A DNA stretch of 64,000 nucleotides from Alloascoidea hylecoeti (taxonomy: Eukaryota), in the NCBI GenBank assembly GCA_001600815.1, contig BCKZ01000008.1:372001-436000 (forward strand). The letters are read 5' to 3'. Under the pieces are notes generated by a model. It was not told where the DNA came from. It made no database searches and saw only the letters and a program-made list of their open reading frames with translations. The translations under genes and the position numbers were made by a program. Shown here in pieces: positions 7,689 to 59,607 of this stretch; the first letter of the stretch is position 1; each line of letters opens with the position of its first letter.

Positions 7689-8937
7689 ATGAAACTTCAA
7701 TTCAATTTCCCAATATTTAATTTAATATCAATTGCATCTTTGGGATTGGTTCTAGCTATTGTTGCAGAAGTGGTTAATAATGTTCTGGGTGCACATCAGC
7801 TTGAATTCAGACTTGAACTTAGATCAGAAGATATTATACATGTAACTACAACTGCAAATGAATCAAGAGCGCTAGCTGGTTCGAATTCTGGAGGTGTTTA
7901 TGGGAAACTTACTCTTTCTCAGGGTAATGTATAGTATGGTATTTACATTGAAGTTGGAAATCCTCCTCAAAAGATTACCGTTAATGTCAATACTGGCTCC
8001 TCTGATTTATGGGTTCCTTCTAAAGGAGCCGGAATTGCTAACAACTCATGTGCAGGTGCTTTTGATAAATCGTTATCCAGTACTTATGGACATATTTCAG
8101 ATCATTTTTGTCTAATTTATAATGATAACGCTCTTGTACAAGGCGAGTGGTTTAAGGATGATGTATCCATTACTGGACAAACAGTTAAAGGGTTTACCAT
8201 GGGATTATCAAAAAATCACACTTATAAATATGGGATTTTTGGTCTTGGGTTTGATGGTATTTTTGCTGGCCTGGGAAGTTATGAAATTGGTGGCTCCGTC
8301 AACTATCCACATGCTTTAGTTAACTTTGGAATTACAAAATCTAGTGCTTTTTCTCTTTTTTTTTTGAACTCTACTAATTCATCCACAGGGAATATTATCT
8401 TTGGGGGAGTTATATACTGGTAATTTATACACTCTCCCGTTAACAATACTTCCACCACCATTTTTGACTACCCTGATAGACAGTTTGAGTCTTGAAGGGA
8501 AAACTACTCCAGTTAAAAAATCCTTCATTTTAGATTCTGCTTCTGGTTATACTTATCTACCACTTCCTGCTTTGTTGCCAATATTTGAATCTCTTGGAAT
8601 AAACCACACTCCTGGGACGTTTTTGAAAACCGATTGCACTTTAGCAAATGATCAAAGAGTTATTGAATTTAAACTGTGCTACTATCAATATCAAAATTTC
8701 GGACCTCCTGTGGATTTAATTTTGAATGGACTTCAGTCATATGATGTAAGCAAGGGAGTATATACTCTAGGTGATTCCTTTTTAAGATCAGTCTATCTTG
8801 TTTATGATGTACACAACCTACAGGTTTTAATTGCTCAGTCTAATCATTTAGCAGTTGCAACTGATTCCAATATTCGGGTTATTCCTTCAGGAAAAGGTGT
8901 AATTCCTGGAGCCATGAAATGTCCCTCTAGTTTTTAA
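7689..8937 (+). pseudogene. Secreted aspartic protease (SAP/yapsin-like, peptidase A1) pseudogene
   Basis: Signal peptide from the ATG at 7689, then an in-frame TAG at 7932-7934. The same frame continues YGIYIEVGNPPQKITVNVNTGSSDLWV (catalytic D replaced by N), GIFGLGF, AFSLFFLNS..GNIIFGGV. After a frameshift near 8410 it reads YTGNLYTLP..ILDSASGYTYLP..LGDSFLRSVYLVYD. Confidence 0.9.
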
Positions 8938-9153
8938 TTTAATTTAAAATATACCGGTATATACCGGTAACATTTAACTATGTATAAAAGCGAAAAAAAA
9001 TAAAAATATATAGCCATTATTAAATTAATTTTGAATTTTCTTTCATATCATTAGCAATTATAAATCTATAAGATTATTTCTGTCATTAATATTTTACCAG
9101 TCGGTCATAGTACAATTAATATTTTTTTATCTATTTACTTTCTTTAATTGATT

Positions 9154-11183
9154 TTACTCTTCCTCTTCTTCTTCTCCTTCTTCATCATAACCTTCCTTGA
9201 ATGTGAAATTTTCCATTGAAATATGAGCTTCAGTGAAAATATCATTGTATTCAAGTTTAGTTTCTAATTTTTCTGCAAGTAAATGAATAGAATTAATTGA
9301 TTTAAAATCGATTAATTCAATACCTAATTCAATATCTGTATAAGGTTCATCGGCAACTAACATTGCAGTCTCATCTTTGTCTTCCCTTTTATCTTCGGCT
9401 TCAGCTTTATCTTTGGCCCCATCTTTGTCTTCAACTTTTTCAGAATCATCTACCTTTTCAATTTCAGCCACGATATTTGTACTAGAAGCTTCAACATTGG
9501 CGTCATTAGTTTCATTTGGAATATTATCTGAAACTGCTGAGAGGACAGTATTTGGTTCGGTTTTACTATCAGTGCTTGGGTGATAATCAGTAGGAATTGG
9601 TTCTAAGTTTGAAGTAATTGTATCTGTAGATATATCAGTAGTAACCGAGCCTTCAGTAGGTTCATTTAGAGTCGCACTTATTGGCAGAGTAGGTACACAA
9701 TCTATCATTTCTTCATCAATATGTTCTTGCGAATTGGCTTCATAATTAACCGGTACCTCCTCTATATCTGTTGACATATCATTTTCTGCATTTTCTTCAC
9801 CTTCTTCATTTTCTTCGTTTTCTTTAACTGGAGGCATATATGGTTCGGCCAATTTAACTTTCAATCTATCATCCTGTTTTTCTAACAAAATACCAATCAC
9901 ATTTTGCATAACTGGTTGGACTAATTCTTCATTAAAATGTAATCTATTAAAAACAATTACATTACCAGGTTCTAGATCCTTAAAATTCAATTTTTTTAAA
10001 GCATTCAAATCATAAGATTCTAAAGTAGGATCAAAATCAACCCAATCTTCATCATCTTCTTCTAGAACAACTTGAACTTCTCTATCACCACAAATGATTG
10101 CCCATGGTGCATCTGGTAAATTAAAATCATCATAATTATTACCACATTCTACCTGTTCAAATACAAGTTTTTTCAACCATTTCCCATCATCATCATCTGC
10201 AATTACAGGTAAGTTTGATTCATCAATCGGTATAGGACGAGGACCATAAAAAATAGATAATTGATTTTGACGTTGACTATGATGATTTTGAAGATGTTTC
10301 TTCTTGCGAAGATTTCGTTTTTGGGATTTGGTTAAAGGAGCTTTTACTACTTTTTCACTTTCTGAACCTGAATCTGAATCTGAATCTGAATCTGAATCTG
10401 AATCTGAATCTGAATCCGTATCAGAGTCAATGTTAGTTGAAACCGAAGTAGAGTGGGGCCTATTGTTCAAAGAACGAGAATCTGGTGAAGATTCGGAGGA
10501 GCTTGCTCGCCGTTTTCTCGCACCATCTGAATTATCTTGAGGTTCAACGGACCTTGAAACATCATTTGTGACTGTTAATTGACTTGAGCTTTCTATATCC
10601 ATTGCATCTGTTGAATCTCTAGTACCAGAAACTCCTCTCCCCAATACAATTCTCTCTGGTAAAGGAATACGAAGACCAGTTAAAGTCTCCGAGATACTCT
10701 GTGATGAGTTGGGGGGTTCACGGAGAGCACTAGTACCAGACCTTGAGCTAACTACCGAACCAGCGACACTATATTCTGACACATCAACCGATGCTATGAG
10801 ATCTGAAGGAATGAAAGAAGATGAAGCTTCCTTCTCAACTGGCACAAGCCTAAAAGTAATCGAAGGTTAGGTTCACATTATAAACAAGCTTCATGAGGAA
10901 AATAAAATAGGGGAGTTTCAAAATTTTCTTACACAACAGTATCACCTTCTTCAACAACATCATCAAACTGGTCATCATCTAATAGTTTAAACCTATCTAA
11001 TTGAGCTTCATAAGTTTTAGAACTATCAACTCCTGGAACTTTACTAAAGGAATTGATGAAAAATAAAACAACCTCAGAAACACTTTTAGACGAAATCTCT
11101 GGTTTCAAAGGTCTTCTGGCTCTGACCACTTCTCTATACTTGAGATTGGGGCCCTTGGTCTTTATGATAAGATTGATCTTCAT
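9154..11183 (-). CDS. Coilin/Mug174-like protein, two exons (11183-10933 and 10849-9154)
   Basis: An 83-nt intron joins the two track ORFs in frame (..EEGDTVV-LVPVEKE..). Architecture: N-terminal ubiquitin-like beta-grasp candidate, Ser/Asp-rich disordered region, basic KSQKRNLRKKK motif, and a Tudor-like segment DLEPGNVIVFNRLHFNEELVQPVMQNVIGILL with an acidic insertion. The gene model is well supported; the coilin call is inferred. Confidence 0.65.
10361..10415. repeat. (TCTGAA)n hexamer repeat encoding (DS)n
   Basis: Directly visible tandem repeat inside the coding sequence. Confidence 0.95.
10850..10932 (-). other. Spliceosomal intron (83 nt)
   Basis: On the minus strand it reads GTAAGA ... 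AACCTAAC (branch point) ... TTTTAG. Removing it deletes the exon-1 TAA and restores the reading frame. Confidence 0.85.
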
Positions 11184-11374
11184 TGACACGGTACCGGTGA
11201 AGCAGAATGGAGGTCGAAGAAGGAGAAAGAGGAGGAAGAGTAACCAGCTCTGTTGTGGATTGATCCTGCGATGCCTGTATCAGCAGATATTACCCGGCCT
11301 TTCATCCTCAGATATTAGGTTTTGTGTACGACCTTCTCCAATTTATATTCATATTTATATTCTTTTCTATTAAA
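11184..11374. promoter_or_regulatory. Compact 191-bp bidirectional promoter with a Reb1-type TTACCCG site
   Basis: Divergent ATGs at 11183 (-) and 11375 (+); TTACCCG at 11290-11296. Confidence 0.5.
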
Positions 11375-14300
11375 ATGCCACCTCGGATTGTGAATAAATA
11401 TGGTTCTCGAAGAGGTGTACATAATGATAGTACAATTCAACCCGAATGGACGCGTCATACACCTTCCTCCAGCCTAAAATACCCAAAGACAACTAAAACA
11501 TTTAGCTCTGCTCTTGATGAATATTCAAAAAGATTAAAAAAGCAAGAATATGAACTACAGAAGGAAATCTGTGAAAAATATGGTATTACACATAGTGATA
11601 TGTTAAATCAATTAAAAGAATCTTTAATATCAAACACGGGTTTTACAAAGGAAAGCACTCCAATGACTAATTTTTCAGACAGTCTTGAAACCATTCCTGT
11701 TGTACAACCCTCAGAAACTCTAGATTCCATTAGTGATCCTTCAACTTTTTTTCATGAGGAATTGGATACAAATATTACAGAAAAATTAGATAATTTAAGC
11801 AACAAATTAAAAAATACAAAGATCCAAGTTATTAAAGAATCAATTCCTAAAACTACGAGAATTACGCGTTCACATTCAAATTCACGTGTATTACCCCCTG
11901 CTGAGGATAATATAACGACAGAGAAATTTACCAAAAATATAACAAAAAAGGATAGTTTAATAAATAATGAAAAAACACCTAATATACTGGAAATGGAAAT
12001 TGATAAAATTCCTGTTACACTTCATGGTGAATTTAAATTATTTGTTAATATGCTTGATCTTGAAAATCCAATTGATAAACATATTAAGGATTATATCATC
12101 GATTGTACTTTAAATCATTTAACGCATGCTGATTTTTGTAAAAAGAATAAAATTAATGCAAAAGATTTTCAAAAAAGACTTTCGGTTCTAATAAGTTCAA
12201 ATGATTTCAAAAATTCATACGATAAATTACTGGAAATCAATACTACTGAAAATGAAAATGAATCAATAATTGTTAATAATTTCGAAAACGAAAAAAATAT
12301 AAAACCATTTAAAGACGAAGATGCTTTTAAGTTGCTTGATCTTAGTAGGGTTGTAGATCGTGCCGTATATTCATTTCTGTCTGGAGAATCACATAAGTTA
12401 AGTGAAGCTGCTGAGCGTTACGAAGTGATCACACGATCAATGATCAATACAATCTCACGGTTAAGGAAGAGTGATCAATTTGAATTGTTTTACCAAGAAA
12501 TATTGAAAAGAAAACATATAAAAAAAAGCAATAGAAGAAAGCCTCGGAATCAAAAATCTAAGAATTTAGAGCTTGAGGTATTGAATACAGAATCCCAAAC
12601 AGAAAAAGAAAAAGAAAAAACAGAAAAAGAAAAAGAAAAAACAGAAAAGGAAAAGGAAATTTCCACTATCGAAAATACAATATCTACATCTAATCATGAT
12701 GGGAGCACCAACTTAGAAACTACAACTAAAACCAGCTCTAGGAGAAATCTTCGGAATCGAAAATCTAAAAATTTAGAGCTTGAGGTATTGAATACAGAAT
12801 CCCAAACAGAAGAAACAGAAAAGGAAAAGGAAAAGGAAAAGGAAAAGGAAAAGGAAAAGGAAAAGGAAAAGACGATTTCCACTATCGAAGATACAATATC
12901 TACGTCTGATCATAGCTTAGAAATTACAAATAAAACCAGTTCTAGAAGAAATCTTCGGAATCGAAGATCTAAGAATTTAGAGCTTGAGGTAATGGATACA
13001 GAATTCCAAAAAGAAAAAGAAATTTCTACTTTCGAAGATACAATATCCACGTCTGATCATGAGAGTAGCACCAACTTAGAAACTACGAGTGGAATCAGCT
13101 CTAGATTGAAAAGAAAATGTAGCACCAAAACGCAGACTGAACTCTTTAACCGAAGGGATTACGAGAAAGAAGATGCAATAACCAAATATATAATTGATAA
13201 TATCGTTGAAGATAAAAAATGGAAAAGTCTAACTCCAACGATTTTTAATATGCTTGATTTTAATAATAAGGTAGATTGTTGTCTAAAATCATACTTAATG
13301 TTCGAGTTCGAATCGCAGAAGAGTGCAGCTGAGAGTTTTGAATTAACTCGTGCTTTATTGCAAGATAGAATTAAAAAGCTGGAAAAAAACAAACAGTTTG
13401 TTTTGTATTATTCTGAATTCTCCAAGCGTCGTCGAGGGGCCAGAAATGCCATTGAAGAGCCTCTTATTGATTCACTAGATTTAAATAATGGTATTGATAA
13501 TGATATATTATCAGCTTTCTCAATTAAATATTCAGCCCAAACAATTAATACATCAAAAAGAATTGACGTGAGACAAATTTCCGAAAGGGTAAAAATGCTC
13601 AGAAAGAATGACAAATTTGATGAACTGATGGTTAAATTTATGCATTTAAAATTATGGGCCCCAATTGAACTTGTAAGCAAACCTATAAACGAAATAAACG
13701 AAATCGTATTTGTGAAACCTAACCAAGATCTATCCGAATCCGAAAATTTACCTCTTTTTTATCAACCTATTCTGGTTTATGAATCTAGAAGAACACGGTC
13801 CAGTTTATGCTACAAGCCAAGTGGCTCCCCGCAAATCGAAAAAAGATCAAAGGAAAGTGAGATCAGTAACAGGAGAAAAAGGCGACATATTGAAAAACAT
13901 GATGATACCCAGGTGATTATTGCAAATACTGAAGCCACAGATGTCTCTGGATCAAATTTGGAGTCAAACAATAAAGATTATTTAACGGCTTCTCATTCAA
14001 ATAACAATAACTTATCAGAAACCACAGTTTCACAAAATACTGATACATCACCTCAGTCACCTCTTTCATCTCTTCCAGAATCACCTTCTTCTTATCCAAA
14101 TTCATCATCTCCGTATAATGAATTACAAGAATTAACTCCTATTTCATCACCATCTAGACAACCTCTTTCTACAATAGTACAGGAATATATTCGTACACCT
14201 TCAAATAATACATCGATGTGGGAAGAAAAAGCAATTGTTGATTTTTTCAAACTTCGAGCCGAATTTGGAGTGGAAGAGCCAATTAAACTTTCATTAATAC

Positions 14301-14734
14301 AAACATTTGCTGATTTATTACTAAAATCTCGTCTTTGGTATTATAATAATATGTTAGTAGATGATATAAATATCCAATCAGTTTCAGAAGGTTGGACCAA
14401 AAACTTTGTTTCAAGAAACAATTTTTTATCTGATCTTCAAGAATCAGATAAAATCGATGAAGATGATACAAATGTATCGAATGGCTTAGCAAATGACCTA
14501 GCAAATGTTTTTTATGCCCGTGAAGAATACAATCATATCAATAAAATGGCACCTTTTTTGCGAGGTGATAATGACTCAACGATATTAGGTTTATTCTTAT
14601 TACAAAAGTTAATAATATTATATTTAACTTTATTGAAGATTAAGGCAGAGAATTGTGATAAGGATGTATCATTTTGTATGAATTTAATTAACATGTTAGA
14701 TGGTGATCATAAAAAATTACTTCAATTTGTATAA
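11375..14734 (+). CDS. Multi-HTH protein with psq-type repeats and a C-terminal CENP-B/Tc5-type HTH; probably derived from a pogo/Fot1 transposase
   Basis: Four related units begin LDLENPIDKHIKDY, LDLSRVVDRAVYSF, LDFNNKVDCCLKSY and LDLNNGIDNDILSAF, with HTH-like cores such as LSEAAERYEVITRSMINTI and QKSAAESFELTRALLQDRI. The C-terminus contains EEKAIVDFF...GVEEP..SLIQTFADLLL...VSEGWTKNFVSRN. ATG at 11375. Confidence 0.65.
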   Translation: MPPRIVNKYGSRRGVHNDSTIQPEWTRHTPSSSLKYPKTTKTFSSALDEYSKRLKKQEYELQKEICEKYGITHSDMLNQLKESLISNTGFTKESTPMTNFSDSLETIPVVQPSETLDSISDPSTFFHEELDTNITEKLDNLSNKLKNTKIQVIKESIPKTTRITRSHSNSRVLPPAEDNITTEKFTKNITKKDSLINNEKTPNILEMEIDKIPVTLHGEFKLFVNMLDLENPIDKHIKDYIIDCTLNHLTHADFCKKNKINAKDFQKRLSVLISSNDFKNSYDKLLEINTTENENESIIVNNFENEKNIKPFKDEDAFKLLDLSRVVDRAVYSFLSGESHKLSEAAERYEVITRSMINTISRLRKSDQFELFYQEILKRKHIKKSNRRKPRNQKSKNLELEVLNTESQTEKEKEKTEKEKEKTEKEKEISTIENTISTSNHDGSTNLETTTKTSSRRNLRNRKSKNLELEVLNTESQTEETEKEKEKEKEKEKEKEKEKTISTIEDTISTSDHSLEITNKTSSRRNLRNRRSKNLELEVMDTEFQKEKEISTFEDTISTSDHESSTNLETTSGISSRLKRKCSTKTQTELFNRRDYEKEDAITKYIIDNIVEDKKWKSLTPTIFNMLDFNNKVDCCLKSYLMFEFESQKSAAESFELTRALLQDRIKKLEKNKQFVLYYSEFSKRRRGARNAIEEPLIDSLDLNNGIDNDILSAFSIKYSAQTINTSKRIDVRQISERVKMLRKNDKFDELMVKFMHLKLWAPIELVSKPINEINEIVFVKPNQDLSESENLPLFYQPILVYESRRTRSSLCYKPSGSPQIEKRSKESEISNRRKRRHIEKHDDTQVIIANTEATDVSGSNLESNNKDYLTASHSNNNNLSETTVSQNTDTSPQSPLSSLPESPSSYPNSSSPYNELQELTPISSPSRQPLSTIVQEYIRTPSNNTSMWEEKAIVDFFKLRAEFGVEEPIKLSLIQTFADLLLKSRLWYYNNMLVDDINIQSVSEGWTKNFVSRNNFLSDLQESDKIDEDDTNVSNGLANDLANVFYAREEYNHINKMAPFLRGDNDSTILGLFLLQKLIILYLTLLKIKAENCDKDVSFCMNLINMLDGDHKKLLQFV
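12530..13105 (+). repeat. Three imperfect in-frame tandem units of about 200 bp containing (GAAAAG)n runs
   Basis: The peptide RRNLRNRKSKNLELEVLNTESQ..EKEKE..ISTIEDTISTSDH repeats three times with high DNA identity. Confidence 0.9.
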
Positions 14735-15066
14735 TTATTAATTATTTGTTTTTACTTATAAATTTTTGAATTCAATAGCTATGTATGCATCATCTAGTAA
14801 ATACTTTAATCTATAATTCTGTATCACGAAAGCATACTGCTTCTTCTAAAGTCAATTCATCAATTCAAATTAAATGTAGAGCTCAAGTGTAAAAATCAAT
14901 TGAAAATTAAATTGAATAACGACACAATTGTCAAGTGGTGCATAAATATACCAGTTTGTGTCCTATTATTGAATAGGATTAAAAATTTTATGCTCTAAAA
15001 ATAATACACGATAGCCACGTCTATATGCTCGATTATATTTAATATATTTGTTGTTTTATTTGTTTT

Positions 15067-18000
15067 TTATTTGCTTTCAGTATCAGATTTTTTTGAAGGT
15101 ATTCCGAAAGCAGAAACGGGTGCTCCAAGCCAGCCATTTGAATCAGCTGTGGTTGTAGTTGTAGTTACTATAGAACCAACAGGATTATCAACGGTACGAA
15201 TTCCCTCATCATCGTCATCTAAATCCATATTGTTAACATTTTCTAAGCCTAATGGTGATGATGGAATAGGTGGAGAAATATCAATTGTTTCCGGTTGCTG
15301 CAAATTAATATCAAATAAATTTAATTCAGAATCTAAATGACTAGAACCTGCTATTGAATTATCTGCTGAAGCCGATGGACTCAAAGAACTTGTTGAATAG
15401 TCTGGTGCTGTTAATAACGGAATGATTTGTGATTCTTTTTTAATAATAGTGGTACTGTCATTAGATGCATCATCGGAATCAGTGAAACTGGATAATGGTG
15501 TTGACCCTGACTCTTGACTTGAATCGGGTTCAACATAAAATGGTTCAGCATCAGAAGAATCTAATACCATAGCATTATAATTATCATCAGCATTATCTAA
15601 AATTGAGTCAGAAGCACTATCACTAGTGTCATTAATTGCACGTCTTTTATAAGTACCATCAATTTCCATAACATCTCTTTTATTATGCTTAGGTTTATGT
15701 TTTGATTTTAATTTTCTTGAATTATTATTAGATTTTATCTTTTTAGTTTTTCTTAATTTAATTTCTTCAAGTTTATGCTGTTTTCTTGCTTCATGAATTA
15801 ATTTTTCTTTATCATAAATTTCTCTTTCATTAATAATTCGTTTTATATTTTCATTAATTTCATCTTTTAAATTAATTTCATAATCACTTAAATCTTTTCT
15901 TCTATAAAAAAGTAAATAAGCAGCTTCAGTTACAACACGTTCAGCAGTCACTTTTTTAACTCTTGAATCATCAAAAGAATACCACTCATCATCATCACAG
16001 ATTAAATTTTTAACAAATGCAGTATAATGACCACCACCTAAACCACCGAAATGATTGTCAACGGCAATTAATTCATATTCATTATTATCATGATTTATTG
16101 TATGATTTGACATATCAAGTGTATGAGGGAATGAAATAAAATCATCAATTTTCTCCCTTCTACTAAAACCTCCACCCATATAACTATATGCTGATGCTGA
16201 TGAATTTCCAAATCTTTTTAAATGTATTGTTAAAATTTTTGGTAATGACCAAATTTCTAATGTTTTAGTTGCAGCTTGATGTGTTTTACATTTTGAACAA
16301 TACCATTTATTATTTTCTGACAATTTTTCTGATTTTGTCAAATATGATAAACAATCAGAAAGAGTTATTTGTTTATTTTTTCTTTCATTTAATTTATTTT
16401 TCAAATCATTTGAAATTTTATCATCTTTATCAATTTGTAAATTTGTAATATCAATAAATGAGGTTGATGATGATAAAGAAATAACTAATGAATCTTGATT
16501 TGTAATATTATAGAATATTTGAGAATTGTTAGCTGTTATAGAATCACTGGATGATTCAGTAGATTCTATTTGTTCCTCAATTATTTGTTTATCATTAATA
16601 TGATCATTCATACTTGGTTTTGAAATAGTTACCGAGACAAGGGTATCATCATTTTCATCGGTTTCAACTTTCAAATCACTATTTGATTCGTCATTACGAG
16701 GTTCGTCTTCGCCATATAGGTCTTCGTCATTATCAATATCTTCAAATGATGAATTTTGTATTGACGTATTAGAAGAATCAGTATTCGTAATATATACCAT
16801 ATCACTTTCTTTTTCATTTTCTTTCTCATTTTCTTTTTCATTCAAAGATATTCCTTCATTTTCCTTGTCTGATTCGAGTTTAAAGGCTTCATCTAATGTT
16901 TTAAGCGATGCATTTTCAATCGTTTGACCTGGCAAACTAACTTCAACATTTTTAAAATTAAATGAATCTTGATCTGAAGAATCATCATCATTTCTTTTCC
17001 AATTATATCTTAATGGTCCAAACTTTGTAGATTTCCTGTTTGTATTCTGGGAGATATAAATATTTGAATGATTTATTTCAATTGGATTTCCATTTTCACC
17101 ATCATCATTATGATTGATTAATAATGAGAGTTTTTTAGTTAATTTTTCAAAAACGTCTTCATAAGTAGTATTATCATTCAATGAAATGAAAAAAGGTATA
17201 CCAAAAGGTTTTAAATTTGCCGGACCATATAGATTTGTTTTATCAATACCACTTACTAATTCATGTTTAAATTTATCATCATCTAATAAATAAACAGGAA
17301 TGATATTATTATCGCCTTTATCAATTTTAACATGATATATAATATTAATATCTGAATCTTTTATATCATCAATTGAAAAATTATCATCATTATTATGAAG
17401 TTTAAAAAATTTACCTTTATAAATTTCACAAAATATAAGTGCATCATCATTATCATTTAATTTAAATCTTTTGGAAATTTCATTAAAAATATTATCATTT
17501 TTTGTATCAATTTCTAATAAAATTGGACAAATTCCAAAAGTTTCACTAAAAAAAATTAATTTTAAAATTTTTTTATTAATAATTTTTGGAATTGGTACTG
17601 TTAAATCCATAAAAGTTTCAAAACAAACACTAATATTATCACAATTATTACCTGAATTATTAATATTATCATTTGGACATTTTAAAATTGATCTATATGA
17701 ACCTGAAAATAAATCAACTATAATACTTTGATTTCTTAAATGATAAGTATTTAAACAATCATTTGCAAAATGTACTAGTTTATTATTATTTTTTGGATCA
17801 AGTATATTTGGGATTGTATTTGAATCCGGTGATTCTGTGACTGGTTTGAACAAAACTTTATTTAAATCTTCATGTAACGAATCTAATAAAAATGAAAGAA
17901 ATTCTTGTGAATCTTGTTGGCCAAAACCAGAAAACATTGTAGCATGTTTACCAATAATATACTTAAAATCACCAGGAGAGAAAACCTTATTATCATCATT

Positions 18001-18771
18001 AAAGACATTTTGAATTAAGGAAGAATACGCAACAGCTACTTCTCCCTTATAACCAAGAGGATTGATAAGATTAATATCTCTTTGATGTAATTGTGCCATA
18101 AAATAACAAGTTAATTCAGGAACATGAAGTAAACACTGTAAAGCGGAATTAAAATAACAAGTATTTCCAAGATTGTGTAATCCAGTTGATCCTCTACCAC
18201 GAATAGGTTCTAAAGAATAATCTCTTGGGATTATTGGGGACATTATTAGATGTGTATGTGGTTTATCAATTGTAAAATTCTCATGTATATGAGGTGATGA
18301 ATTGTCGCTTGAAAATAGTGATAAATGAAAATTAAAGGGGATGAACATTCTCCTTTTAATTGAAATAGAAATTTTTTTAATTAATACTGGAAGTTTTACT
18401 TCTAAACCAAAACATAAATCATTAAAATGAATCCAAATAACATTATCACTTTCATCAATTATATCCCGTTTTTCATCTTCATTTACATCCTCATTTCCAT
18501 TTTCAACATTATTTTCAATATTATTTTCACTATCAGTTTCAATTTCAATTCCGGTTTCATTTTCATTTTTATTCCCATTTTTACCATATTTTGCCATTAA
18601 ATGTTTATGAATAGTCCTTGACACATAAACAACTCTTTGTGGTTGTAACGGCAAAACGTATTTTGGATATTCATTCCCACTCACCTCAGCCACCTCCTCC
18701 ATCCACTTGGCACCAACGGGCACAGATCCTTCTGATGGAGTGAAGGAAAAAGGGAAATTTAATGGCGACAT
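15067..18771 (-). CDS. UBP12: Ubiquitin-specific protease, Ubp12/USP4-USP15 family
   Basis: Cys box GLHNLGNTCYFNSALQCL, QQDSQEFLSFLLDSLHEDLN, WYCSKCK, and His box NHFGGLGGGHYTA...WYSFDDSRV...AAYLLFYRR. Confidence 0.88.
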   Translation of the reverse strand: MSPLNFPFSFTPSEGSVPVGAKWMEEVAEVSGNEYPKYVLPLQPQRVVYVSRTIHKHLMAKYGKNGNKNENETGIEIETDSENNIENNVENGNEDVNEDEKRDIIDESDNVIWIHFNDLCFGLEVKLPVLIKKISISIKRRMFIPFNFHLSLFSSDNSSPHIHENFTIDKPHTHLIMSPIIPRDYSLEPIRGRGSTGLHNLGNTCYFNSALQCLLHVPELTCYFMAQLHQRDINLINPLGYKGEVAVAYSSLIQNVFNDDNKVFSPGDFKYIIGKHATMFSGFGQQDSQEFLSFLLDSLHEDLNKVLFKPVTESPDSNTIPNILDPKNNNKLVHFANDCLNTYHLRNQSIIVDLFSGSYRSILKCPNDNINNSGNNCDNISVCFETFMDLTVPIPKIINKKILKLIFFSETFGICPILLEIDTKNDNIFNEISKRFKLNDNDDALIFCEIYKGKFFKLHNNDDNFSIDDIKDSDINIIYHVKIDKGDNNIIPVYLLDDDKFKHELVSGIDKTNLYGPANLKPFGIPFFISLNDNTTYEDVFEKLTKKLSLLINHNDDGENGNPIEINHSNIYISQNTNRKSTKFGPLRYNWKRNDDDSSDQDSFNFKNVEVSLPGQTIENASLKTLDEAFKLESDKENEGISLNEKENEKENEKESDMVYITNTDSSNTSIQNSSFEDIDNDEDLYGEDEPRNDESNSDLKVETDENDDTLVSVTISKPSMNDHINDKQIIEEQIESTESSSDSITANNSQIFYNITNQDSLVISLSSSTSFIDITNLQIDKDDKISNDLKNKLNERKNKQITLSDCLSYLTKSEKLSENNKWYCSKCKTHQAATKTLEIWSLPKILTIHLKRFGNSSASAYSYMGGGFSRREKIDDFISFPHTLDMSNHTINHDNNEYELIAVDNHFGGLGGGHYTAFVKNLICDDDEWYSFDDSRVKKVTAERVVTEAAYLLFYRRKDLSDYEINLKDEINENIKRIINEREIYDKEKLIHEARKQHKLEEIKLRKTKKIKSNNNSRKLKSKHKPKHNKRDVMEIDGTYKRRAINDTSDSASDSILDNADDNYNAMVLDSSDAEPFYVEPDSSQESGSTPLSSFTDSDDASNDSTTIIKKESQIIPLLTAPDYSTSSLSPSASADNSIAGSSHLDSELNLFDINLQQPETIDISPPIPSSPLGLENVNNMDLDDDDEGIRTVDNPVGSIVTTTTTTADSNGWLGAPVSAFGIPSKKSDTESK

Positions 18772-19152
18772 TTTGGAATCCTGTTTTTTAACGTTTGTGA
18801 GACATATTTAATTTTTTCAAGTGTAGGCAAAAGATTTGAACACCCGTACACCAAAGAGGTTTATTATGAAAATGAATATTTTCCTTATCCATCTCATGAA
18901 TATAAAATTAAAATAAATATAATGGAAAGCTTTTTCCGGTGAAATTTAAATGTTGCTATTCTTTTTGCTTTTCTATTAGGCTGAGGGGTTTCCTATTTGT
19001 ATGTAAACGTGAAGTTCTTTTTCTTTTTAAAAAACCTATAAGTTATAAAGGTGATTCTATTATAACTGGCTACTCCAAAGAAAAATATACTAGCTTTATT
19101 ACTATAGTAATACATCTAATTTATATTGATTATCTTCATTGACCTTTAACCG

Positions 19153-23698: not shown

Positions 23699-26149
23699 AT
23701 GTTAAAGACTACATTTTCTCATAGAACAATTGAACCATTTTTTAACCAAGGGATCCCATCATTTACATCATCATCAACAATTAATGATGAATTAATATTA
23801 ACAATTAATGACCAAGATGTTTTTTTAATGAATTTAAAAACAGGTTTTAAGATATGTGATTTTAAAGGAGATGGAGAAGAAATTACATTTATTAATTTAA
23901 CACCAGATGGGAAATATGTTATTATATGTTCAAGATCATATCAAATGTTTATATATAAAGTGAATTATGAAGAAAACAAAAGTCACCTGGTTAAAAAATT
24001 AAAAGCTCATGATAGTTCAATTTTAGTTTGTGCTATTGATTCAAGTTCAAGTTTATTAGCAACTGGTGGAGCAGATGGTATAATTAAAGTATGGGATATT
24101 GAAGGTGGATTTGTAACTCATAATTTTCATGGTCATAAAGGATTAATATCAGCACTTGAATTTTATCAAATTGATAATGAAGAAGAAGGATTAAAGATTG
24201 GATTAGTTAGTTCAGATGATTCATTTCAAGTTCGAGTTTGGGATTTAATTAAAAGAAAATGTATTGTAGTAAATGATGATTCACATGATGGAGTTATAAG
24301 AAGTTTTAAATTTTCAAAAAATTGTTCAAAAATGATTAGTGGTGGAAGAGATCAAATTATTCAAATTTGGGATACAACATCAATTAATAAAAAAAAATGG
24401 AAAATTTTAAAAACATTACCAATTTTAGAAAGTATTGAATCATGTGGGTTTTTAAATGATAATGAAGATATTATTTATACAGGTGGTGAAGATTGTCAAG
24501 TTAAACTATGGTCATTATCAAATGGAAAATTATTAGCATCAACAATTAAAAAATTTAAAACAAATGAAGAAATAAATATAGTTAATATTTACAAAGTTCC
24601 ATCATTAAAAACAACAAGATTATATGTTACATTATCAGATCAAAGAATTTGGGAATTAGAAATTTTTAAAAATGATAATGATAATTATGAAATTAAACTA
24701 ATTCGGAATATTTCAGGAAATCATGGAAATATAATTGATTGTAAATTAGTTTCAAAAAATTTATCAAAAATTGCATTAGCAACAACATCAACAGAGATTG
24801 AAATTATTAATTATAAAAATGATCATACAAATGAAGATACTTCAACAAGTATTAATGATATTGATATTTTACAAGGTCATGAAGATATCATATTATCATT
24901 AGATACAACTATAAATGGTTATTGGTTAGCATCAGCAGGAAAAGATAATAAAGCAATTTTATGGAAATTAGATTTAAAAACAAATAAATTTATTTGTTAT
25001 GCTATTTTCATTGGACATGCAGGATCAATTAGTGGTATTGGATTATCAAAATTACCATTGATTGATGATGAAATTCCAAAATTTTTAATAACTGGTTCAG
25101 ATGATTTAACAATTAAAAAATGGAAGATTCCAAATCCTTATAGCAAGAAAAATAAGAATAAGGAAGAAAATTTTGAATTACCATTTATTGTTAAAGCTTC
25201 AGAATATACAAGAAAAATACATGAAAAAGAAATTAATTCAATTGATATATCACCAAATGATACATTAATTGCATCAGCAAGTTTTGATAAAACATGTAAA
25301 ATATTAGATATTGAAACAGGAGAAACAATTGGGATTTTAAAAGGTCATAAAAGAGGAATCTGGTCAGTTAAATTTTGTCAATATGATAAATTAATTATAA
25401 CAGGTAGTGCAGACAAAACAATTAAATTATGGGATTTAAATAATTTTCAATGTTTAAAAACATTTCAAGGACATTCAAATTCAATTTTAAAATTATCATT
25501 CATTAATTCAAATAAACAAATTGTTAGTTGTGGTGGAGATGGATTAGTTAAAATTTGGGATTTAAAAGAAGATGAATGTATAACAACTTTGGATAATCAT
25601 GAATCAAAAGTTTGGAGTTTAAGTGTTATAAATGATGGAGAAGAAATTATTTCAGCAGATGGAGATGGAGTCATTACAATTTGGAAAGATAATACCGAAG
25701 AACAAGTTAAATTGGATGAAGAGCAAGAAAAAGAAATGATTGAACAAAGACAACATTTAGATAATTTTGTCAATAAACAGGATTGGAAGAATGCTATATT
25801 GTTAGCATTAAAGTTGAACCATCCGTATAAATTGTTTCAAATTTTCCAACAGGTTTTGGTTGAAGGGAAAGAAGAAGTTTTGGAGGATATTGTTGTGAAT
25901 CTGAGCATCGAAGAACTTACGATATTGCTTGGACGGATAAAAGACTGGAGTACCAGCTGGAAGTCGTCACTGATTGCTCGGAAACTGATCAGTTTGGTGC
26001 TGAACAAGATTCCGATCGATAGAGTTTTGCAAGTCGCAGGTATTTCCGGGATGCTGGACTCGATTGTTCCGTACCTGGAAAAGCACTTTGGCAGGGCGGA
26101 TGAATTGTTGGAGCAGACGTATATTCTGGATTATCTCATGTACACGTAA
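23699..26149 (+). CDS. UTP13: U3 snoRNP/SSU processome WD40 protein Utp13
   Basis: Many WD repeats (LLATGGADGIIKVWDIEGGFVTHNF, YTRKIHEKEINSIDISPND, GHKRGIW) and the Utp13 C-terminal domain (AILLALKLNHPYKL...PY.EKHF.R...QTYILDY). Confidence 0.93.
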   Translation: MLKTTFSHRTIEPFFNQGIPSFTSSSTINDELILTINDQDVFLMNLKTGFKICDFKGDGEEITFINLTPDGKYVIICSRSYQMFIYKVNYEENKSHLVKKLKAHDSSILVCAIDSSSSLLATGGADGIIKVWDIEGGFVTHNFHGHKGLISALEFYQIDNEEEGLKIGLVSSDDSFQVRVWDLIKRKCIVVNDDSHDGVIRSFKFSKNCSKMISGGRDQIIQIWDTTSINKKKWKILKTLPILESIESCGFLNDNEDIIYTGGEDCQVKLWSLSNGKLLASTIKKFKTNEEINIVNIYKVPSLKTTRLYVTLSDQRIWELEIFKNDNDNYEIKLIRNISGNHGNIIDCKLVSKNLSKIALATTSTEIEIINYKNDHTNEDTSTSINDIDILQGHEDIILSLDTTINGYWLASAGKDNKAILWKLDLKTNKFICYAIFIGHAGSISGIGLSKLPLIDDEIPKFLITGSDDLTIKKWKIPNPYSKKNKNKEENFELPFIVKASEYTRKIHEKEINSIDISPNDTLIASASFDKTCKILDIETGETIGILKGHKRGIWSVKFCQYDKLIITGSADKTIKLWDLNNFQCLKTFQGHSNSILKLSFINSNKQIVSCGGDGLVKIWDLKEDECITTLDNHESKVWSLSVINDGEEIISADGDGVITIWKDNTEEQVKLDEEQEKEMIEQRQHLDNFVNKQDWKNAILLALKLNHPYKLFQIFQQVLVEGKEEVLEDIVVNLSIEELTILLGRIKDWSTSWKSSLIARKLISLVLNKIPIDRVLQVAGISGMLDSIVPYLEKHFGRADELLEQTYILDYLMYT

Positions 26150-31760: not shown

Positions 31761-32737
31761 GGATTACCTGATATGGAAAGTAAAATATCTTTCATCTGAG
31801 AAACAAATGATTTCCCACCTTCATTATTTGTAAAAGCTTGACTTGCATCCCATAACATTATACCACCAAAATAAGGATCTGATGAAATTTTTCCAACTGT
31901 TTCTTTAATAGTTGATGAAGGAACATAACCAGAACCAGCAGCAGATGATGAAGCAGGTAAACCAAGGTAAATTCTAACATTTTTATTTGGAGAAGTTTTT
32001 GCATAATCTGACCATTTATCCCAATTAAAATCATTTCCAATTGAACATTGATTATTATAGAATTGTACAAATACCCAATCAATATCAGATTTATCTAAAA
32101 CATCACTTAAATTAGCATCAGGATAAACACATTGTGGAGCAGCACCAATAAAATATTGTTTTTGTGATGTTTTGAAATATTCTCTTAATTTTGAAACTAA
32201 AGCAACATAACCAGTTTGTTTATTATTTTCAATATCTAAATCAAATCCATCAATTATAGCATCATCAAATGGACGTAATGATTTATCATTTCCTTCACCG
32301 AAAAGATTCCAAAGAGTTTCAGCAAAAGTTGTTGCTTCATCATCATTTGAAAACCCATAAGAACCGGTACCTGAAGAACCTCCTAATGATAAAAGTATTT
32401 TCTTACCATGTGATTGACATGTTTTGATATCATCAGCAATTGTTGGGCAATGTAATATAGATTTACCAGAAAAAGATGTTTCACAAGAATTTCCAAAATT
32501 TAAACCTGGATTACCATCTTGACCTTTAGGGAATATATGCATAAACGATAAAATAATAATATCGACGGAATCGGTACAATAGGAAGCTAAATTCTGTTGA
32601 TTTTTGGCTGAATTTTGACCCCAATAGACAACATTATTTGTTTTTCCAAGAGAATCAAAAGCATTAATTGATGTAAAAGAAGTAATTATTAATAAAAGAA
32701 AAAATGTAATATTTAATGAAAATTGAACTGGTAACAT
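31610..32737 (-). CDS. CTS1: GH18 class III endochitinase (Cts1/Cht-like) with a Ser-rich tail
   Basis: Signal peptide, VYWGQNS, KILLSLGG, catalytic DGFDLDIE, AAPQC, FVQFYNN and GGIMLWD. Confidence 0.88.
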   Translation of the reverse strand: MLPVQFSLNITFFLLLIITSFTSINAFDSLGKTNNVVYWGQNSAKNQQNLASYCTDSVDIIILSFMHIFPKGQDGNPGLNFGNSCETSFSGKSILHCPTIADDIKTCQSHGKKILLSLGGSSGTGSYGFSNDDEATTFAETLWNLFGEGNDKSLRPFDDAIIDGFDLDIENNKQTGYVALVSKLREYFKTSQKQYFIGAAPQCVYPDANLSDVLDKSDIDWVFVQFYNNQCSIGNDFNWDKWSDYAKTSPNKNVRIYLGLPASSSAAGSGYVPSSTIKETVGKISSDPYFGGIMLWDASQAFTNNEGGKSFVSQMKDILLSISGNPSSPSSSSYSASSSYSPSSSYSPSSFYSSYLPSSSYLPSSSYLPSSSYAP

Positions 32738-33499
32738 TTTCGTATGACAGATCTATAATTAAAACCCTAATTAAAATATATTAATGAATGTATTCTATAG
32801 ATGAACGAATTTGTGTATTTGATAAAGCATTTTTAAAAGAGGATCATTACTGCTTTATATATTTTTTGATCATTTCATATAAAACGTAATGGATCTTTTA
32901 TTTGATGTTAACATTATACTGTTAAGATAGGTGCGGCTGATAATTAAGGTTGGATACGACACAAGGCATGTCATGCATGTAACCCAATTGGGTGATATGC
33001 CGTTTGTTGAGTCTTAGGGAAGTAGTATTGGAGATTTAGGATTTAAGATTATAAGGAGATTAAGTAATATTGACAATACAATAGAAAAAGATTTTAGATT
33101 TGACGTTAAGATGAAATTATAGCAAATATAACTATTATCTTTTCTTTCGAAAAACAATTCCTTTCTTTATATTAGAGTTTCACGATTTCAGTTTTTTTTA
33201 ATATAATTTCACCTTTTAGTAATTATTAATTCATAACGGGTATCAGAGAATCATTGTTTAGTAGAGCAAATTGACTTATTTTCAAAGGAAAAAGATTCAA
33301 AGAGAAAACTCTGAAGATATTATAGTTTGATTTTTCGATAGAAAAATTATTATTTTATAGAAGAGGTTTTTGGTGTCCCTTACCAGGTGTACTATGCATA
33401 CGTCATAAATATTAATGCATATGTTCTTCGCATAATTCACTATTTCCCGCGATTTCATCAATATTAATGTTAAGAATAGGAAAAACTTTGAAAATTTCC

Positions 33500-34450
33500 C
33501 CACATTTGATGTATATCTAGAACATGGCCCATTCACGTTTTCCAGTGGATTGAGTGCTTTGCGTGGTGCTGACACATGTTTGAATCAAAAATATGCAGCA
33601 GATAAGCAGTCTTTTCGTAAATATTTATCAACAGCCCTTTGAGTGAGACCTCAATATCTAATAAAGGTATTTTCAATCGGTTTGGTTGTATATTTTTAGA
33701 CCAGAAAGTACGTATATTTTTGGAGTTCAATGCCTATTGTAAGCACTTATCATATGTTTCCCAGACTTCAGGGATCTGTTTACTTAATTATCATTAAAAC
33801 TCATCTCGTAGATGCACACTTGTAGACTCTTTGGGCCTCGAAGTTTATATTTTATTTTTTTAAACGTCTATTTTACTAGATTCTCTAACACAAGGAGAAT
33901 TCCGAAAAATAGCTGGTATGCCAATAAAGCATATTCTGTAATGTTTTTGCATATTTGTCAGGTTGTGAACTAATAAGTACTCAAAGTGCCATTTAAACAT
34001 ATTTAACTGCTGCATGAGAATAATCTTACTTGTCTCGTCATTTTCCTCTGGCATCACAATATCTGTAATTAATCAAATTGTTTTTTTTTATAGATAGGTT
34101 TATTAAGTGGTAATTCACCATCTGACCATTTTTAACCTCCGTTTGGACTCTTCTTATTTTCAAGACGAAGTTGATAATAATCCCGTAGCCACCTTTTGAG
34201 CGGTAGCAAACAATTGTTTCCCTTCTATCAACAGCGTAACTGTTCCTTAAATGTGCTCAAATATCGCATCTTCCTGAAAACCGAAAGATTTCGTTCCGTA
34301 GTATTAAATTCATTGATTGGAGGAGTTATAACTAACTTATTCATGAGGGTAGATCAGCGAAGGCTTTTTGTATGCATAATCGATTTACAGGATATGTTAA
34401 AATTCAATTAGGTCTAAATAACGGGGATATTTAATCTCAAACATCGATTG
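33500..34450 (-). mobile_element. L1-clade non-LTR retrotransposon (Zorro-like) ORF2 relic
   Basis: In order on the minus strand: YPRYLD (about 34420; cf. RT domain 7 KYLG), RNLSVFRKMRYLSTF (about 34280; cf. LSxxGRxxLxNT) and IVCYRSKGGYGII (about 34190; cf. ICxPKxxGGLGI). Many stops and frameshifts; the 3' boundary is uncertain. Confidence 0.6.
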
Positions 34451-34764
34451 TATTTTTCCCAATTTAAATTTAAGATGTGAGGTGATGGTAGCATGTCAAC
34501 AACAATGCTAAATTTTCGTTTAAGTATATTATTTATGGTTCTTTTTATAAAGATTTACTTACAATTGGTTAGATTACCTGATTGGGTAATTTCAGCATAT
34601 CTTAAACAAATTCCTGGTAGTATAACATTTATAAAAGTTGGTGATATTATTGAAGTTATTCGAAACAACTTTGCTTTGCGCCAATGTTCTTCCTGACTTT
34701 GGTTAATTTTTCTTATAGTTATCATTAAAAGTTATCGTTGTTGTTGTTGTTGTGGTTGAAGTTT

Positions 34765-35020
34765 TATTTTCTTTTGCATACCAGCAATTGCTTTAGACCT
34801 TTCAAGATTTTCAATAATTATATTATTATCTCTTTTAGCTTGTTCAATTTCAGTCACCATTTTTTCTTGGAATTTCCTCTTTTCAACAGCAATATCTTTA
34901 ACTAAATTCTGCTATTTACATTTATGTAAATACCTTATATTTGATATATCATCATTTTTTACCACCAATTGGATTACCATATTAATTACTATGCATATGC
35001 ACATAAAACATCTTTTTTAC
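34765..35020 (-). pseudogene. ESF2: ESF2/ABT1 pseudogene fragment (3' part)
   Basis: GNPIGGKK, a frameshift, then DDISNIRYLHKCK*QNLVKDIAVEKRKFQEKMVTEIEQAKRDNNIIIENLERSK. This aligns with the Esf2 pattern IGGKK...DDI.N.KYL..FKW..LTEQIA.E.....KL..EI.QA...N..F..NVE.SK. The conserved W is TAG at 34912-34914. Confidence 0.8.
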
Positions 35021-36757
35021 TAAGGATGTATATAGCTTTTGGTGCATAACTAATAATAAATTTTGTAAAACAATAAAGCGTTATTTATACAGTATATCTA
35101 CTTTTGGAAATTCTAAAAATTGGAAAATAAAAATAAACAATTTATAAACTTATTATGCATTTTAATAGATCATCAAGTGGGGAATCAATATATTTAACAC
35201 CTTATAACTGTTAGAAGGAGTATTAGAAGATTAAATTATTCTAATTTTTAATCGAATTTACATATATGGGGTGATTTATATTATTACCCAATTTTTCTTA
35301 TATACTATATAGTTCCCACATTAAATAAGAGAAAGAAAGAAAACACACATTCTTTATAATAAATCTTTACTATGCCTTCCTCCTAAATCTAAGGAATCAA
35401 AATATGAGTCCTTGCCTTTCAGCCAACAATAACTAATTGTTGACTGTTTTCATGAATCAATAATTACATATAACGATCAATCTGATAAACAGTTCAATTC
35501 GTTTAAATATTCTCAAAATTCAATTGAAAACTTGTTTAAAACATTTGAATAACATATTTAAAAGCATATATCAAAAAAGTATATGATAAAATTAACCTAT
35601 AAGACCTTATAGCTATAATATATTGCAGCCGTTATAATTTATAACTATGCTAATTAATACATGATGTATTAATTTGAAGTTTTATGAAATAATTATTATA
35701 GTAAATAATAATCAATTAGATTTAAAAAAACTATGAATTCGAAGAAAACAAAATTAAAATTTAAAAGTATATGTATCTATAACGAATTGAATATTAAGAT
35801 ATATAATAATTTTCATATATTTTTTTGAAAGTATTAAATAATCCTTTTTATAAAATTGATAAATCGAATAATTTGTTAATCAAAAAAAAAAATATAAGAA
35901 AATTTAAACAAAATTTAAAAGTTTCAAATTATATATCGAACGAATAAAATTTAAAATCTCTTTTTTTTTAAAAAAATTGCAAAAAGCTTAACGAACCACA
36001 AATTAAAAAAAATAAAAAAAAATAAAAAAAAAAAATAAAAACGAATTCGAATTCGAAACAAGTAAACAATCAATCAAACAAACAATTAAATGAATAAACG
36101 AATAAATAACTTGATAAATAAATGAACAGATTCATATATGAATAAATAAAAGGGCAAGATAAAATAGGAAATAATAAAATTAATCAATCAATAATTATAA
36201 AGAATATCTTTTTTTTTCTTTTTATTGTAAAATCAGAAGTCAAGTCAAAAATCAAAAACCATAAGCAGAAACAATATATCTTCAACTAAGGAAAGAAAAA
36301 AAAGGAGTAATATTTATAAATAAGTTAATTGGCAAAAACAAAATCAAAAAAATGCGATAATTTTATATACAAAGTAAAGTAAAGTTAACAAAAATAAAAG
36401 AAAAGAAATATATATTTATAAAAGAAAAGAAGGGGGTAATTGAAGAAAGAGGAAAAGTTTTCTTTGAAAACAATAAGGTTAGTTAGTAATAATAATAGCT
36501 AATATTAGAAATGAAAAATAAAATTAATAAAGAGATTTCAAATATGCATAAATAAGTCTTCAAAGTCAGGGGATTCAGAAAAAACAAAAAAACCATCAAC
36601 CAATAATTAAAGAGATATTGCATTATTTTGTGCTTTTCTGTTGTTATTGTTGTTGTAATTATTGATTGAAATCATACCACTTAAAAAATCATAAATCAAA
36701 TTCAATAAGATAAAATAAATAAAAAGGTGAAAATCTTTTTTTTTGTCATTTTTGATC

Positions 36758-36758
<1 letters not shown>

Positions 36759-36799
<41 letters not shown>
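36759..36799. repeat. (AAT)n microsatellite
   Basis: Directly visible. Confidence 0.95.
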
Positions 36800-37463
36800 G
36801 TTTAAAAGTAAAATAAAATAATAATATTTGTATTCATAGATGGTGTATAATAGAATAGAATAGAACCCTTTTAAAAAATAGATCTCTTAAATTTCAGTCA
36901 TGGTAATAATAGTAGTTTAAATATGAAAGTAAAAAACAATTTGCTTGTTTTATTTTTTGTATTTGTATAAATGAAAATTTGCAAAAATTGAAAAAAACAG
37001 TGTATATATATATGTCGTTCCAAACAATAACATAATGTGTAATAGATTTTATGTTATTATGATTCATCACTTTCGAATAATAATATAGTAGTATTAAAGA
37101 GAAAAAAAAAACAAATTTTTATAATAATGTTGTTTGAATATTTATGCTGTGATATTTCATTTCATTTGGTTTTTGTTGTTAGGTTTGGTTTGTGGGTGGG
37201 TATTTTCATCTTTTTCGTAGTTGTGAATTATATACCCAAATGAAATTTTAAAAAATCAAAAATATTATAAAAAGCAAATTTAAACAGATAAATGATAAAT
37301 AAAAGATAAATAAAAGGAAAAATTTATATAAAATAATGTCCATTCATATTATTAAGAAATTTGTATAAAGTATAAATTTTTTAAGATTTGAAGTAATCAA
37401 TCAATTCATTTGATGGATAATGTGATCAAATAAAAATAAAAATTTCAAGATTGATTGATTGAT

Positions 37464-46704: not shown

Positions 46705-46923
46705 TTATTTCATATATGTGAAATCAGTTTCATTTTCTTCATTTGATCTTGAACAAGTACATTGGTTAGTTGGTCTTTTTCCACAAGAGCATGTAGTTGA
46801 TGGTTTGGCATTTTCAACTGGAGCTTTAGAGCAATTGCAGTCCATAGCAGCTCTTTCACCACAAGAGCATCGGGAAGTTTGAGCACAAATGCAGTTATCA
46901 CTTTGTCCGTTACAGCAAGCCAT
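46705..46923 (-). CDS. CRD2: Crd2-like metallothionein (72 aa, Cys-rich)
   Basis: The pattern CICAQTSRCSCG..A..CNCSKA.VEN...CSCGKR....CTC...ETDFT matches Candida albicans Crd2. Confidence 0.88.
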   Translation of the reverse strand: MACCNGQSDNCICAQTSRCSCGERAAMDCNCSKAPVENAKPSTTCSCGKRPTNQCTCSRSNEENETDFTYMK

Positions 46924-47013
46924 TTTGATAGTAGTAATATTAATAGATGTTAATTAATTGAGAGAAGATATAATTGATGAAGATATTTTTTGAGAATAGT
47001 GGGATATTTAATG

Positions 47014-51189: not shown

Positions 51190-51315
51190 GATCTATTTTA
51201 GTTGTTGAATAAATCTGTAATTATTATATTATTGAAAATGAGGAAATAAAACAAAAAGAAATATAAATTAGGGAAAATGAGACGCCATGAATGGATCTAT
51301 ATGCGTATGCATGTC

Positions 51316-51380
51316 TGTTATGTGGAGTACCGTACTAGGCAGAGAGTCTAGATATCTGGATCCAACAATATCCACATATA
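51316..51380. mobile_element. Short internally deleted relative of the 6305-6610 element
   Basis: TGTTATGTGGAGTA (51316-51329), AGTCTAGATATCT (51345-51357) and TATCCACAT (51369-51377) are shared with 6305-6610 in the same order. Confidence 0.55.
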
Positions 51381-59500: not shown

Positions 59501-59548
59501 CCATATATTAACAGATCGTATCCAAATGCAGCCAGTCACAGCACACGG

Positions 59549-59607
59549 TCGTTTACTCGTTTAATACAGTACGCAGTCGTTTATTCGTTTACTACCGTCT
59601 TTATAAA
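59549..59607 (+). promoter_or_regulatory. ERG2 promoter: four TCGTTTA Upc2/Ecm22-type elements and a TATA box
   Basis: TCGTTTA at 59549, 59557, 59577 and 59585; TATAAA at about 59602. Confidence 0.75.

Follow-up and report, generated by a model that had tools for sequence, protein, structure and literature searches.

The DNA analysed here is a 64,000-nt stretch from Alloascoidea hylecoeti (NCBI GenBank assembly GCA_001600815.1, contig BCKZ01000008.1, positions 372,001 to 436,000 of the forward strand), referred to below as the window and numbered from its first letter. It contains a long open reading frame (ORF) of uncertain nature. Does the ORF encode a host DNA-binding protein that took up part of a pogo transposase, an orphan protein without transposon ancestry, or a transposon copy? 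The original prediction, made from the sequence alone, had proposed a domesticated pogo/CENP-B-like protein with amplified helix-turn-helix (HTH) modules and no DDE domain. The ORF is located as follows.

11375..14734, + strand: intact ORF (protein P0001), 1119 codons plus stop, standard code

The explanation that we favour, with a little less than even confidence, is that the ORF encodes a lineage-restricted, probably nuclear protein, in which disordered linkers would join several HTH-like heads, and to which a single pogo-type HTH, now without its transposase, would also belong. The finding is a well-documented lead, not a demonstrated system.

The reading frame and its repeated modules

The ORF is a real gene with host-like codon usage. 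It is uninterrupted from 11375 to 14734 on the + strand, as had been predicted, and its codon usage correlates with that of the 14 other long ORFs of the window, pooled, at 0.87 in frame and at 0.40 and 0.36 in the wrong frames. The GC content of the genome is 25–37% (about 30%), which makes chance stop codons frequent. Thus, an ORF of 1119 codons is not accidental. Past its stop codon the same frame is crowded with stops, and the DNA there is non-coding. Three of the six CTG codons of the ORF are located at conserved hydrophobic positions of the modules described below, and one of these is the invariant Leu column. Therefore, standard decoding fits the ORF. No RNA data set is listed with this DNA, and metatranscriptome contigs from two runs gave nothing at the locus, or just tiny low-complexity pieces.

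The protein contains the following repeated modules. The bit scores are those of a leave-one-out profile built from the other four modules.

11501..11680, + strand: module M0 (aa 43–102); the core aa 57–91 (11543–11647) alone is recovered independently, 11.1 bits
12026..12247, + strand: module M1 (aa 218–291), 16.3 bits
12308..12541, + strand: module M2 (aa 312–389), 26.1 bits
13220..13459, + strand: module M3 (aa 616–695), 40.5 bits
13457..13687, + strand: module M4 (aa 695–771), directly after M3, 11.2 bits

The leave-one-out profile recovers every module, and the next-best site anywhere in the protein scores at most −2.8 bits. Smith-Waterman scores of the module pairs were compared with 300 shuffles each. 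The z-scores are 14.4 for M2–M3, 8.0 for M3–M4, 6.1 for M2–M4 and 4.4 for M1–M3, and in these four pairs the observed score was reached by none of the 300 shuffles. The pairs M1–M2 and M1–M4 are weak, with 11 and 20 of 300 shuffles, respectively, reaching the observed score. The four homologous modules that had been described from the sequence are thus borne out by z-scores of 4.4–14.4 and leave-one-out scores of 11.2–40.5 bits, and the homology of M1–M4 (about 65–75 aa) is solid. A possible fifth module near the N-terminus had also been mentioned. Its core is recovered by the profile, but of the four M0 pairs only M0–M3 is significant (z 3.1, 3 of 300 shuffles), and the three others are not. 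As the recovery is limited to the core and M0–M3 is the sole significant pair, M0 is weakly supported.

All modules follow one pattern: a short helix that closes with (N/x)(M/L)LD(L/F) is followed by VD/ID, by a helix with small residues, a turn and a helix that closes with R-(I/V)-x-x-L-x-K, and finally by an aromatic residue. In the module alignment, columns of D, L and F are invariant, and a hydrophobic/small pattern recurs along the segment that corresponds to QKEICEKYGIT of M0. This pattern fits the spacing of a classical HTH. The amino-acid identity to M3 is 19–29% among the modules, and similarity at the DNA level is limited to a 26-nt stretch, 85% identical, common to M1 and M3 at the NMLD motif (direct-repeat family D5). 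The module duplications are old. We infer that the modules represent a private, all-helical unit of about 65–75 aa, the conserved positions of which fit a (winged) HTH fold.

Weak database matches point in the same direction. M3 matches the Pfam families HTH_48 (E 0.052) and HTH_41 (E 0.067), and other module matches are Rio2_N (E 0.033) and, at E 0.27 and 0.7, respectively, a PDB entry for an AsnC/Lrp-type regulator and ribosomal S25. The winged-helix/HTH entries among these matches all align to the same helix-turn-helix segment. A PHROGs search with the five modules gave five single matches, all with E of at least 0.049. The winged-helix/HTH matches are suggestive, not evidence. The modules had been read as amplified HTHs of a pogo/CENP-B-like protein, and this part of the original prediction was not supported: no psq, CENP-B_N or other family could be assigned to them. 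According to hhalign, the module profile and the C-terminal region of the protein align over six columns alone (LINMLD, probability 0.6%), and no homology between the modules and the Tc5-like segment located there could be detected.

The C-terminal region and the linkers

The part of the protein that resembles a transposase is a single short segment.

14273..14425, + strand: Tc5/CENP-B-type HTH-like segment (aa ~967–1017), sub-threshold match to HTH_Tnp_Tc5 (PF03221)

The protein was scanned with hmmscan, whole and as 14 pieces. In all five pieces that contain the segment, HTH_Tnp_Tc5 is the sole Pfam family (E 0.004–0.052, 14.0–17.5 bits). An Atlas language-model search with aa 925–1119 gave a top score of 0.90, and 27 of the 30 matches belong to the HTH_Tnp_Tc5 set. 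A Tc5/CENP-B HTH had been predicted at about 14216–14430. The family was reproduced and the segment is now placed at 14273–14425, but the scores stay below the Pfam cutoff. Because two methods agree on one family of about 24,700, at a segment that had been named beforehand, we consider it probable that aa ~967–1017 form a genuine Tc5/CENP-B-type HTH. The comparison with HTH_psq, HTH_Tnp_Tc5 and DDE_1 that had been proposed as a check thus yielded the sub-threshold HTH_Tnp_Tc5 match and left psq and DDE_1 unmatched. The predicted lack of a DDE domain was confirmed, as DDE_1 gave no match at E ≤ 10 in the whole protein or in any of the 14 pieces; about 100 aa follow the HTH.

In the canonical pogo layout a first HTH directly precedes the Tc5 HTH. 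This layout is absent here, and about 100 aa of S/N/P-rich sequence are found instead. According to the consulted sections of PMC7386202, HTH_Tnp_Tc5 stands without a first HTH in POGZ and in some of the pogo transposases. Thus, the missing first HTH is not by itself disqualifying. The simplest explanation of the segment would be the captured DNA-binding domain of a pogo-type transposase after loss of the DDE domain. This single domain is the only part of the protein for which a pogo/CENP-B origin is plausible.

Further features are located between and behind the HTH-like heads.

12521..13104, + strand: tandem repeat array between M2 and M3, three copies of a 204–216-nt (68–72-aa) unit
14579..14635, + strand: strongly hydrophobic helix (aa 1069–1087), 32 aa from the C-terminus, possibly a membrane anchor or a core for self-association
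14681..14698, + strand: LINMLD motif at the C-terminus, repeating the opening motif of the modules

Tandem Repeats Finder reports the array with a period of 204, 2.4 copies and 83% matches, and the direct-repeat families D1 and D2 have three copies each. The unit consists of a basic stretch of the RRNLRNRKSKN type, an E/K run and an S/T-rich stretch; in the protein, the copies begin at aa 396, 465 and 533. The array is the product of recent duplications, and it is predicted to form a disordered spacer. An S/N/P-rich stretch (aa ~840–945) precedes the C-terminal region, and aa 851–950, before the Tc5-like segment, include 63 S/T/N/Q/P/G residues. Basic clusters are also present (KRK, RRK, KRRR and RRKRR) and may serve nuclear import. 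The protein is probably mostly disordered and nuclear.

An acidic linker connects the Tc5-like segment with the hydrophobic helix. The Kyte-Doolittle mean over the 19 residues aa 1069–1087 is 2.11, whereas the next-best window in the protein reaches 0.81. In the AlphaFold model of the C-terminal region this part has the highest predicted local distance difference test (pLDDT) values, which are still only 53–60. The helix may anchor the protein in a membrane or drive self-association. The LINMLD motif lies in a 20-nt stretch, 80% identical, common with the start of M1 (family D9).

These elements suggest how the protein might work. Several weak DNA-reading heads on flexible linkers could bind clustered or repeated sites multivalently. 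DNA binding, a transposon origin and any biological role of the protein are points that we infer, and a role at centromeres or in transposon control would be pure conjecture.

Locus, relatives and competing explanations

The upstream neighbour of the ORF is divergent and 773 bp away, and the downstream neighbour, a ubiquitin-hydrolase gene, is convergent and 333 bp away. Three studies, with four runs between them, contain near-identical DNA; among the samples are a second isolate (X4) and a wood-decay metagenome (X2). The contigs of these two samples cover the locus as follows.

10431–12587: X2 and X4 contig, from the ORF interior into the upstream neighbour
12880–19000: X2 contig, from the ORF interior into the downstream neighbour
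14357–18766: X4 contig, from the ORF interior into the downstream neighbour

Where the contigs lie, one difference from the window is listed in 10 kb; the contigs have gaps at the tandem-repeat array in both samples and at four more places in X4. It is 13653 T>C, and by this exchange codon 760, which belongs to module M4, specifies Ser in place of Leu. Since the X2 and X4 contigs connect the ORF with the neighbours on both sides and just this one difference is listed, the ORF behaves as a fixed, single-locus host gene.

That the ORF is instead a transposon copy, whether autonomous, decayed or captured, is essentially excluded, and the weak Tc5-type HTH match is the one point in its favour. Against it, DDE_1 is missing. 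The 25 longest of the 91 inverted-repeat pairs in 9000–17500 include no pair that brackets the ORF with an arm on either side, in agreement with the predicted lack of terminal repeats. According to tblastn there is no second copy of the protein in the 64-kb window, where the ORF alone is found, and a six-frame search of the window with the module profile gave nothing beyond the ORF (next best 7.9 bits, E 0.07). The proposal of a host gene and not a transposon copy therefore holds, with no bracketing inverted repeats among these 25 pairs, a single copy in the window, contigs of two other samples running into both flanks, and host-like codons.

Relatives of the protein were sought in several collections. 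Word-indexed protein searches gave no hit at E ≤ 0.001 among the 8000 candidates scored for aa 1–1119, and none was found among 532 candidates for aa 930–1119 or, with the module alignment against longer proteins, among 7325 candidates. By our own estimate, E ≤ 0.001 in the representative library corresponds to about 41 bits, and no annotated protein scored that. An exhaustive phmmer search of 1,835,955,588 representatives gave 0 matches. Sequence searches of the PDB gave noise only, with 0 matches for the C-terminal region. The exact protein is absent from a collection of 15 billion proteins, in which all three neighbouring proteins tested are present. As the gene may simply have been missed by gene calling on eukaryotic contigs, the failure to find homologs counts for less than it might seem. 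One neighbour, UTP13 (816 aa, 23699–26149, + strand), is in the public collection, and its cluster also has NCBI members of 522 and 186 aa. These short members may be fragments of split calls, so that patchy public gene calls may explain why the protein studied here is missing.

A scan of metagenomes with the C-terminal 190 aa gave two loci, L001 and L002, which were rejected as chance matches of an 8-residue seed. The L002 match falls within an ORF of 872 aa on a GC-rich contig; from its sequence, we take this ORF to encode a bacterial enzyme of the pyruvate-phosphate-dikinase type. L001 shows the same match and an ORF with identical coordinates. TFIIIC tau138, Spt23/Mga2 and PDC2, considered as possible identities, were also rejected, as the whole-protein Pfam scan was empty and no homologs were found. 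In the literature searched, no description of such a budding-yeast protein came up in the parts of the sources consulted.

Several results weigh against the explanation that we favour. The HTH_Tnp_Tc5 match never comes up to the Pfam gathering cutoff (best 17.5 bits, cutoff 22.2 bits), and the scan of the whole protein gave no Pfam family at E ≤ 10. CENP-B_N, HTH_psq, BrkDBD and HTH_ABP1_N gave no match at E ≤ 10 in any scanned piece, and none of them adjoins the Tc5-like segment. The Atlas match has 152 of 256 features in common. According to the Atlas guide, nine of ten same-family matches share at least 170 features, as against one or two of ten chance matches or distant relatives; 4–10% of shuffled proteins reach a score of 0.9, and the guide is uncalibrated for parts of proteins. 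For the five modules, no Pfam family is matched by more than one module, and all matches have E of at least 0.0087 (best matches 0.0087–0.4, of mixed kind). Equally strong module matches were obtained with CCT zeta (E 0.094), FtsH and a viral fusion protein, and the HTH-type matches are at noise level. The Atlas search with aa 590–770 gave a best score of 0.76 and no lead. The AlphaFold2 single-sequence models are too poor to use, both for aa 590–772 (pLDDT 33.9, helices only) and for aa 925–1119 (pLDDT 46.5). The models were run without an alignment because none exists, and as both are unusable, no HTH fold is demonstrated. In addition, no protein search gave any sequence relative, transposase or other.

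A rival explanation is a fast-evolving orphan host protein without transposon ancestry. The Tc5 likeness would then be due to chance or to a generic HTH resemblance, the modules would be a private helical repeat for protein-protein or other binding, and the protein might not bind DNA. We regard this main rival as unlikely, but as the most serious one. It is consistent with the sub-threshold level of every family-level match, with the lack of homologs among 1.84 billion representatives, and with the lack of a DDE remnant in the protein and of transposase or reverse-transcriptase domains in the window's 15 long ORFs and in another 42 that reach 70 aa or more. Pogo elements (Lemi family) are, moreover, reported in just two Saccharomycotina species in the consulted sections of PMC7386202. 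However, for one and the same 50-aa segment, two different methods arrive at a single family among about 24,700, the segment and the family had been named beforehand from the sequence, and the module pattern and the weak matches lean consistently to a (winged) HTH.

The hydrophobic helix allows a further proposal, a tail-anchored DNA-binding protein, which refines the explanation that we favour and does not exclude it. Here aa 1069–1087 would span the nuclear envelope or the endoplasmic reticulum membrane and tether chromatin at the nuclear periphery. The Kyte-Doolittle contrast and the position of the helix near the C-terminus fit this proposal. No signal-peptide-like N-terminus is seen in the translation, and the six most hydrophobic 19-aa windows are all at aa 209 or beyond. 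By eye, on a helical wheel, the polar residues are not clustered on one face of the helix. On the other hand, Q and K are located mid-helix, the LINMLD motif would end up on the far side of the membrane if the helix spans it, and the AlphaFold model, at low confidence, draws aa 1069–1087 as one helix of a helical hairpin. On balance, we hold a membrane anchor to be rather improbable. Slightly more doubtful still is an independent budding-yeast domestication of a pogo-type DNA-binding domain, fused to a newly evolved HTH array that was amplified internally. Such a protein would bind repeated DNA in the manner of CENP-B or Abp1, at centromeres, telomeres or remnants of transposons, and would maybe be tethered to the nuclear envelope by the hydrophobic helix.

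The gene content of the window is fungal and yeast-like. It includes an LDB19-type arrestin, a BAR/PH protein, the UCH ubiquitin hydrolase, UTP13, an HAD hydrolase, a cytochrome P450, a GH18 chitinase, three Lipase_3 paralogs and ERG2. No tRNA genes or Rfam families were found across the whole 64-kb window. The divergent neighbour of the ORF (9154–10602, − strand) encodes a 482-aa protein that is very acidic, contains an (SD)n run, carries a poly-E tail and has no Pfam family. The convergent neighbour (15067–18771, − strand) encodes the ubiquitin hydrolase of 1234 aa. UCH is matched there in two stretches, the best being aa 195–408 (profile positions 1–141 of 254), and UCH_1 matches aa 760–937. 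Therefore, a long insert rich in N, D and S appears to split the catalytic core of the hydrolase. The Pfam family Asp (eukaryotic aspartyl protease) is split across the overlapping frames 7935–8420 and 8368–8934 (both + strand), where one frame covers profile positions 2–159 and the other 163–314. This split suggests a frameshift, a short intron or a pseudogene. The three Lipase_3 (class-3 lipase) paralogs lie in a row (43271–44551, 47374–48741 and 49918–51189, all − strand) and apparently form a local tandem family, and a small DUF7871 ORF (46708–46953, − strand) is located between two of them. The window is otherwise compact, with long stretches lacking ORFs of at least 150 aa at 32737–37464, 38609–43271 and 51189–59670.

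Comparison with known systems

The cores of the modules align, in weak matches, with the HTH segment of winged HTHs of the AsnC/Lrp, GntR and Rio2_N types. However, these matches have E of 0.03 or worse, and those families are prokaryotic or unrelated eukaryotic ones; membership is not claimed. The private module is not recognised by protein or structure libraries and, if the present reading is correct, it would represent a new helical repeat family.

CENP-B and the fission-yeast proteins Abp1, Cbh1 and Cbh2 are derived from pogo and bind centromeres or retrotransposons. The protein resembles them in the possible Tc5-type HTH and in being a host gene without transposon ends. By analogy, its hydrophobic helical C-terminus could take the role of the dimerisation domain of CENP-B. 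In CENP-B, Abp1, Cbh1 and Cbh2, as described in the consulted sections of PMC4231638 and PMC7386202, CENP-B_N (or HTH_ABP1_N) is directly followed by HTH_Tnp_Tc5 at the N-terminus, and DDE_1 is kept. In contrast, the Tc5-like segment here is near the C-terminus, without an adjoining first HTH and without DDE_1. As these two domains are lacking and the Tc5 match is below threshold, the protein falls outside the CENP-B-related group in its usual definition.

POGZ, a vertebrate protein derived from pogo/Passer, has 1200–1410 aa and combines a zinc-finger array with a single HTH_Tnp_Tc5 (PMC7386202, sections consulted). The likeness would consist in a long protein in which a host array of DNA-binding modules is joined to a captured transposase HTH. 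Unlike the present protein, POGZ keeps DDE_1 with the DD35D triad and has zinc fingers, whereas the array here is made of an unassigned helical module and there is no DDE domain. If the favoured explanation is true, a yeast lineage built a large multivalent DNA-binding protein from a captured transposase domain and a private duplicated module.

A DNA-binding module pathway has been described for the domestication of pogo or Tc1/mariner elements (PMC13548663, sections consulted). Drosophila CAG (CG12346) has a pogo-type DNA-binding domain without DDE_1 and is a DNA-binding-only domestication, according to the consulted sections of PMC4231638. The present protein would share with CAG a pogo-type DNA-binding domain without a DDE_1 domain. 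CAG, however, has 225 aa and is limited to CENP-B_N together with HTH_Tnp_Tc5, each above threshold, whereas the present protein has 1119 aa, five private modules and a sub-threshold Tc5 match. If the present reading is true, the few DNA-binding-only pogo domestications would be joined by one from a budding yeast.

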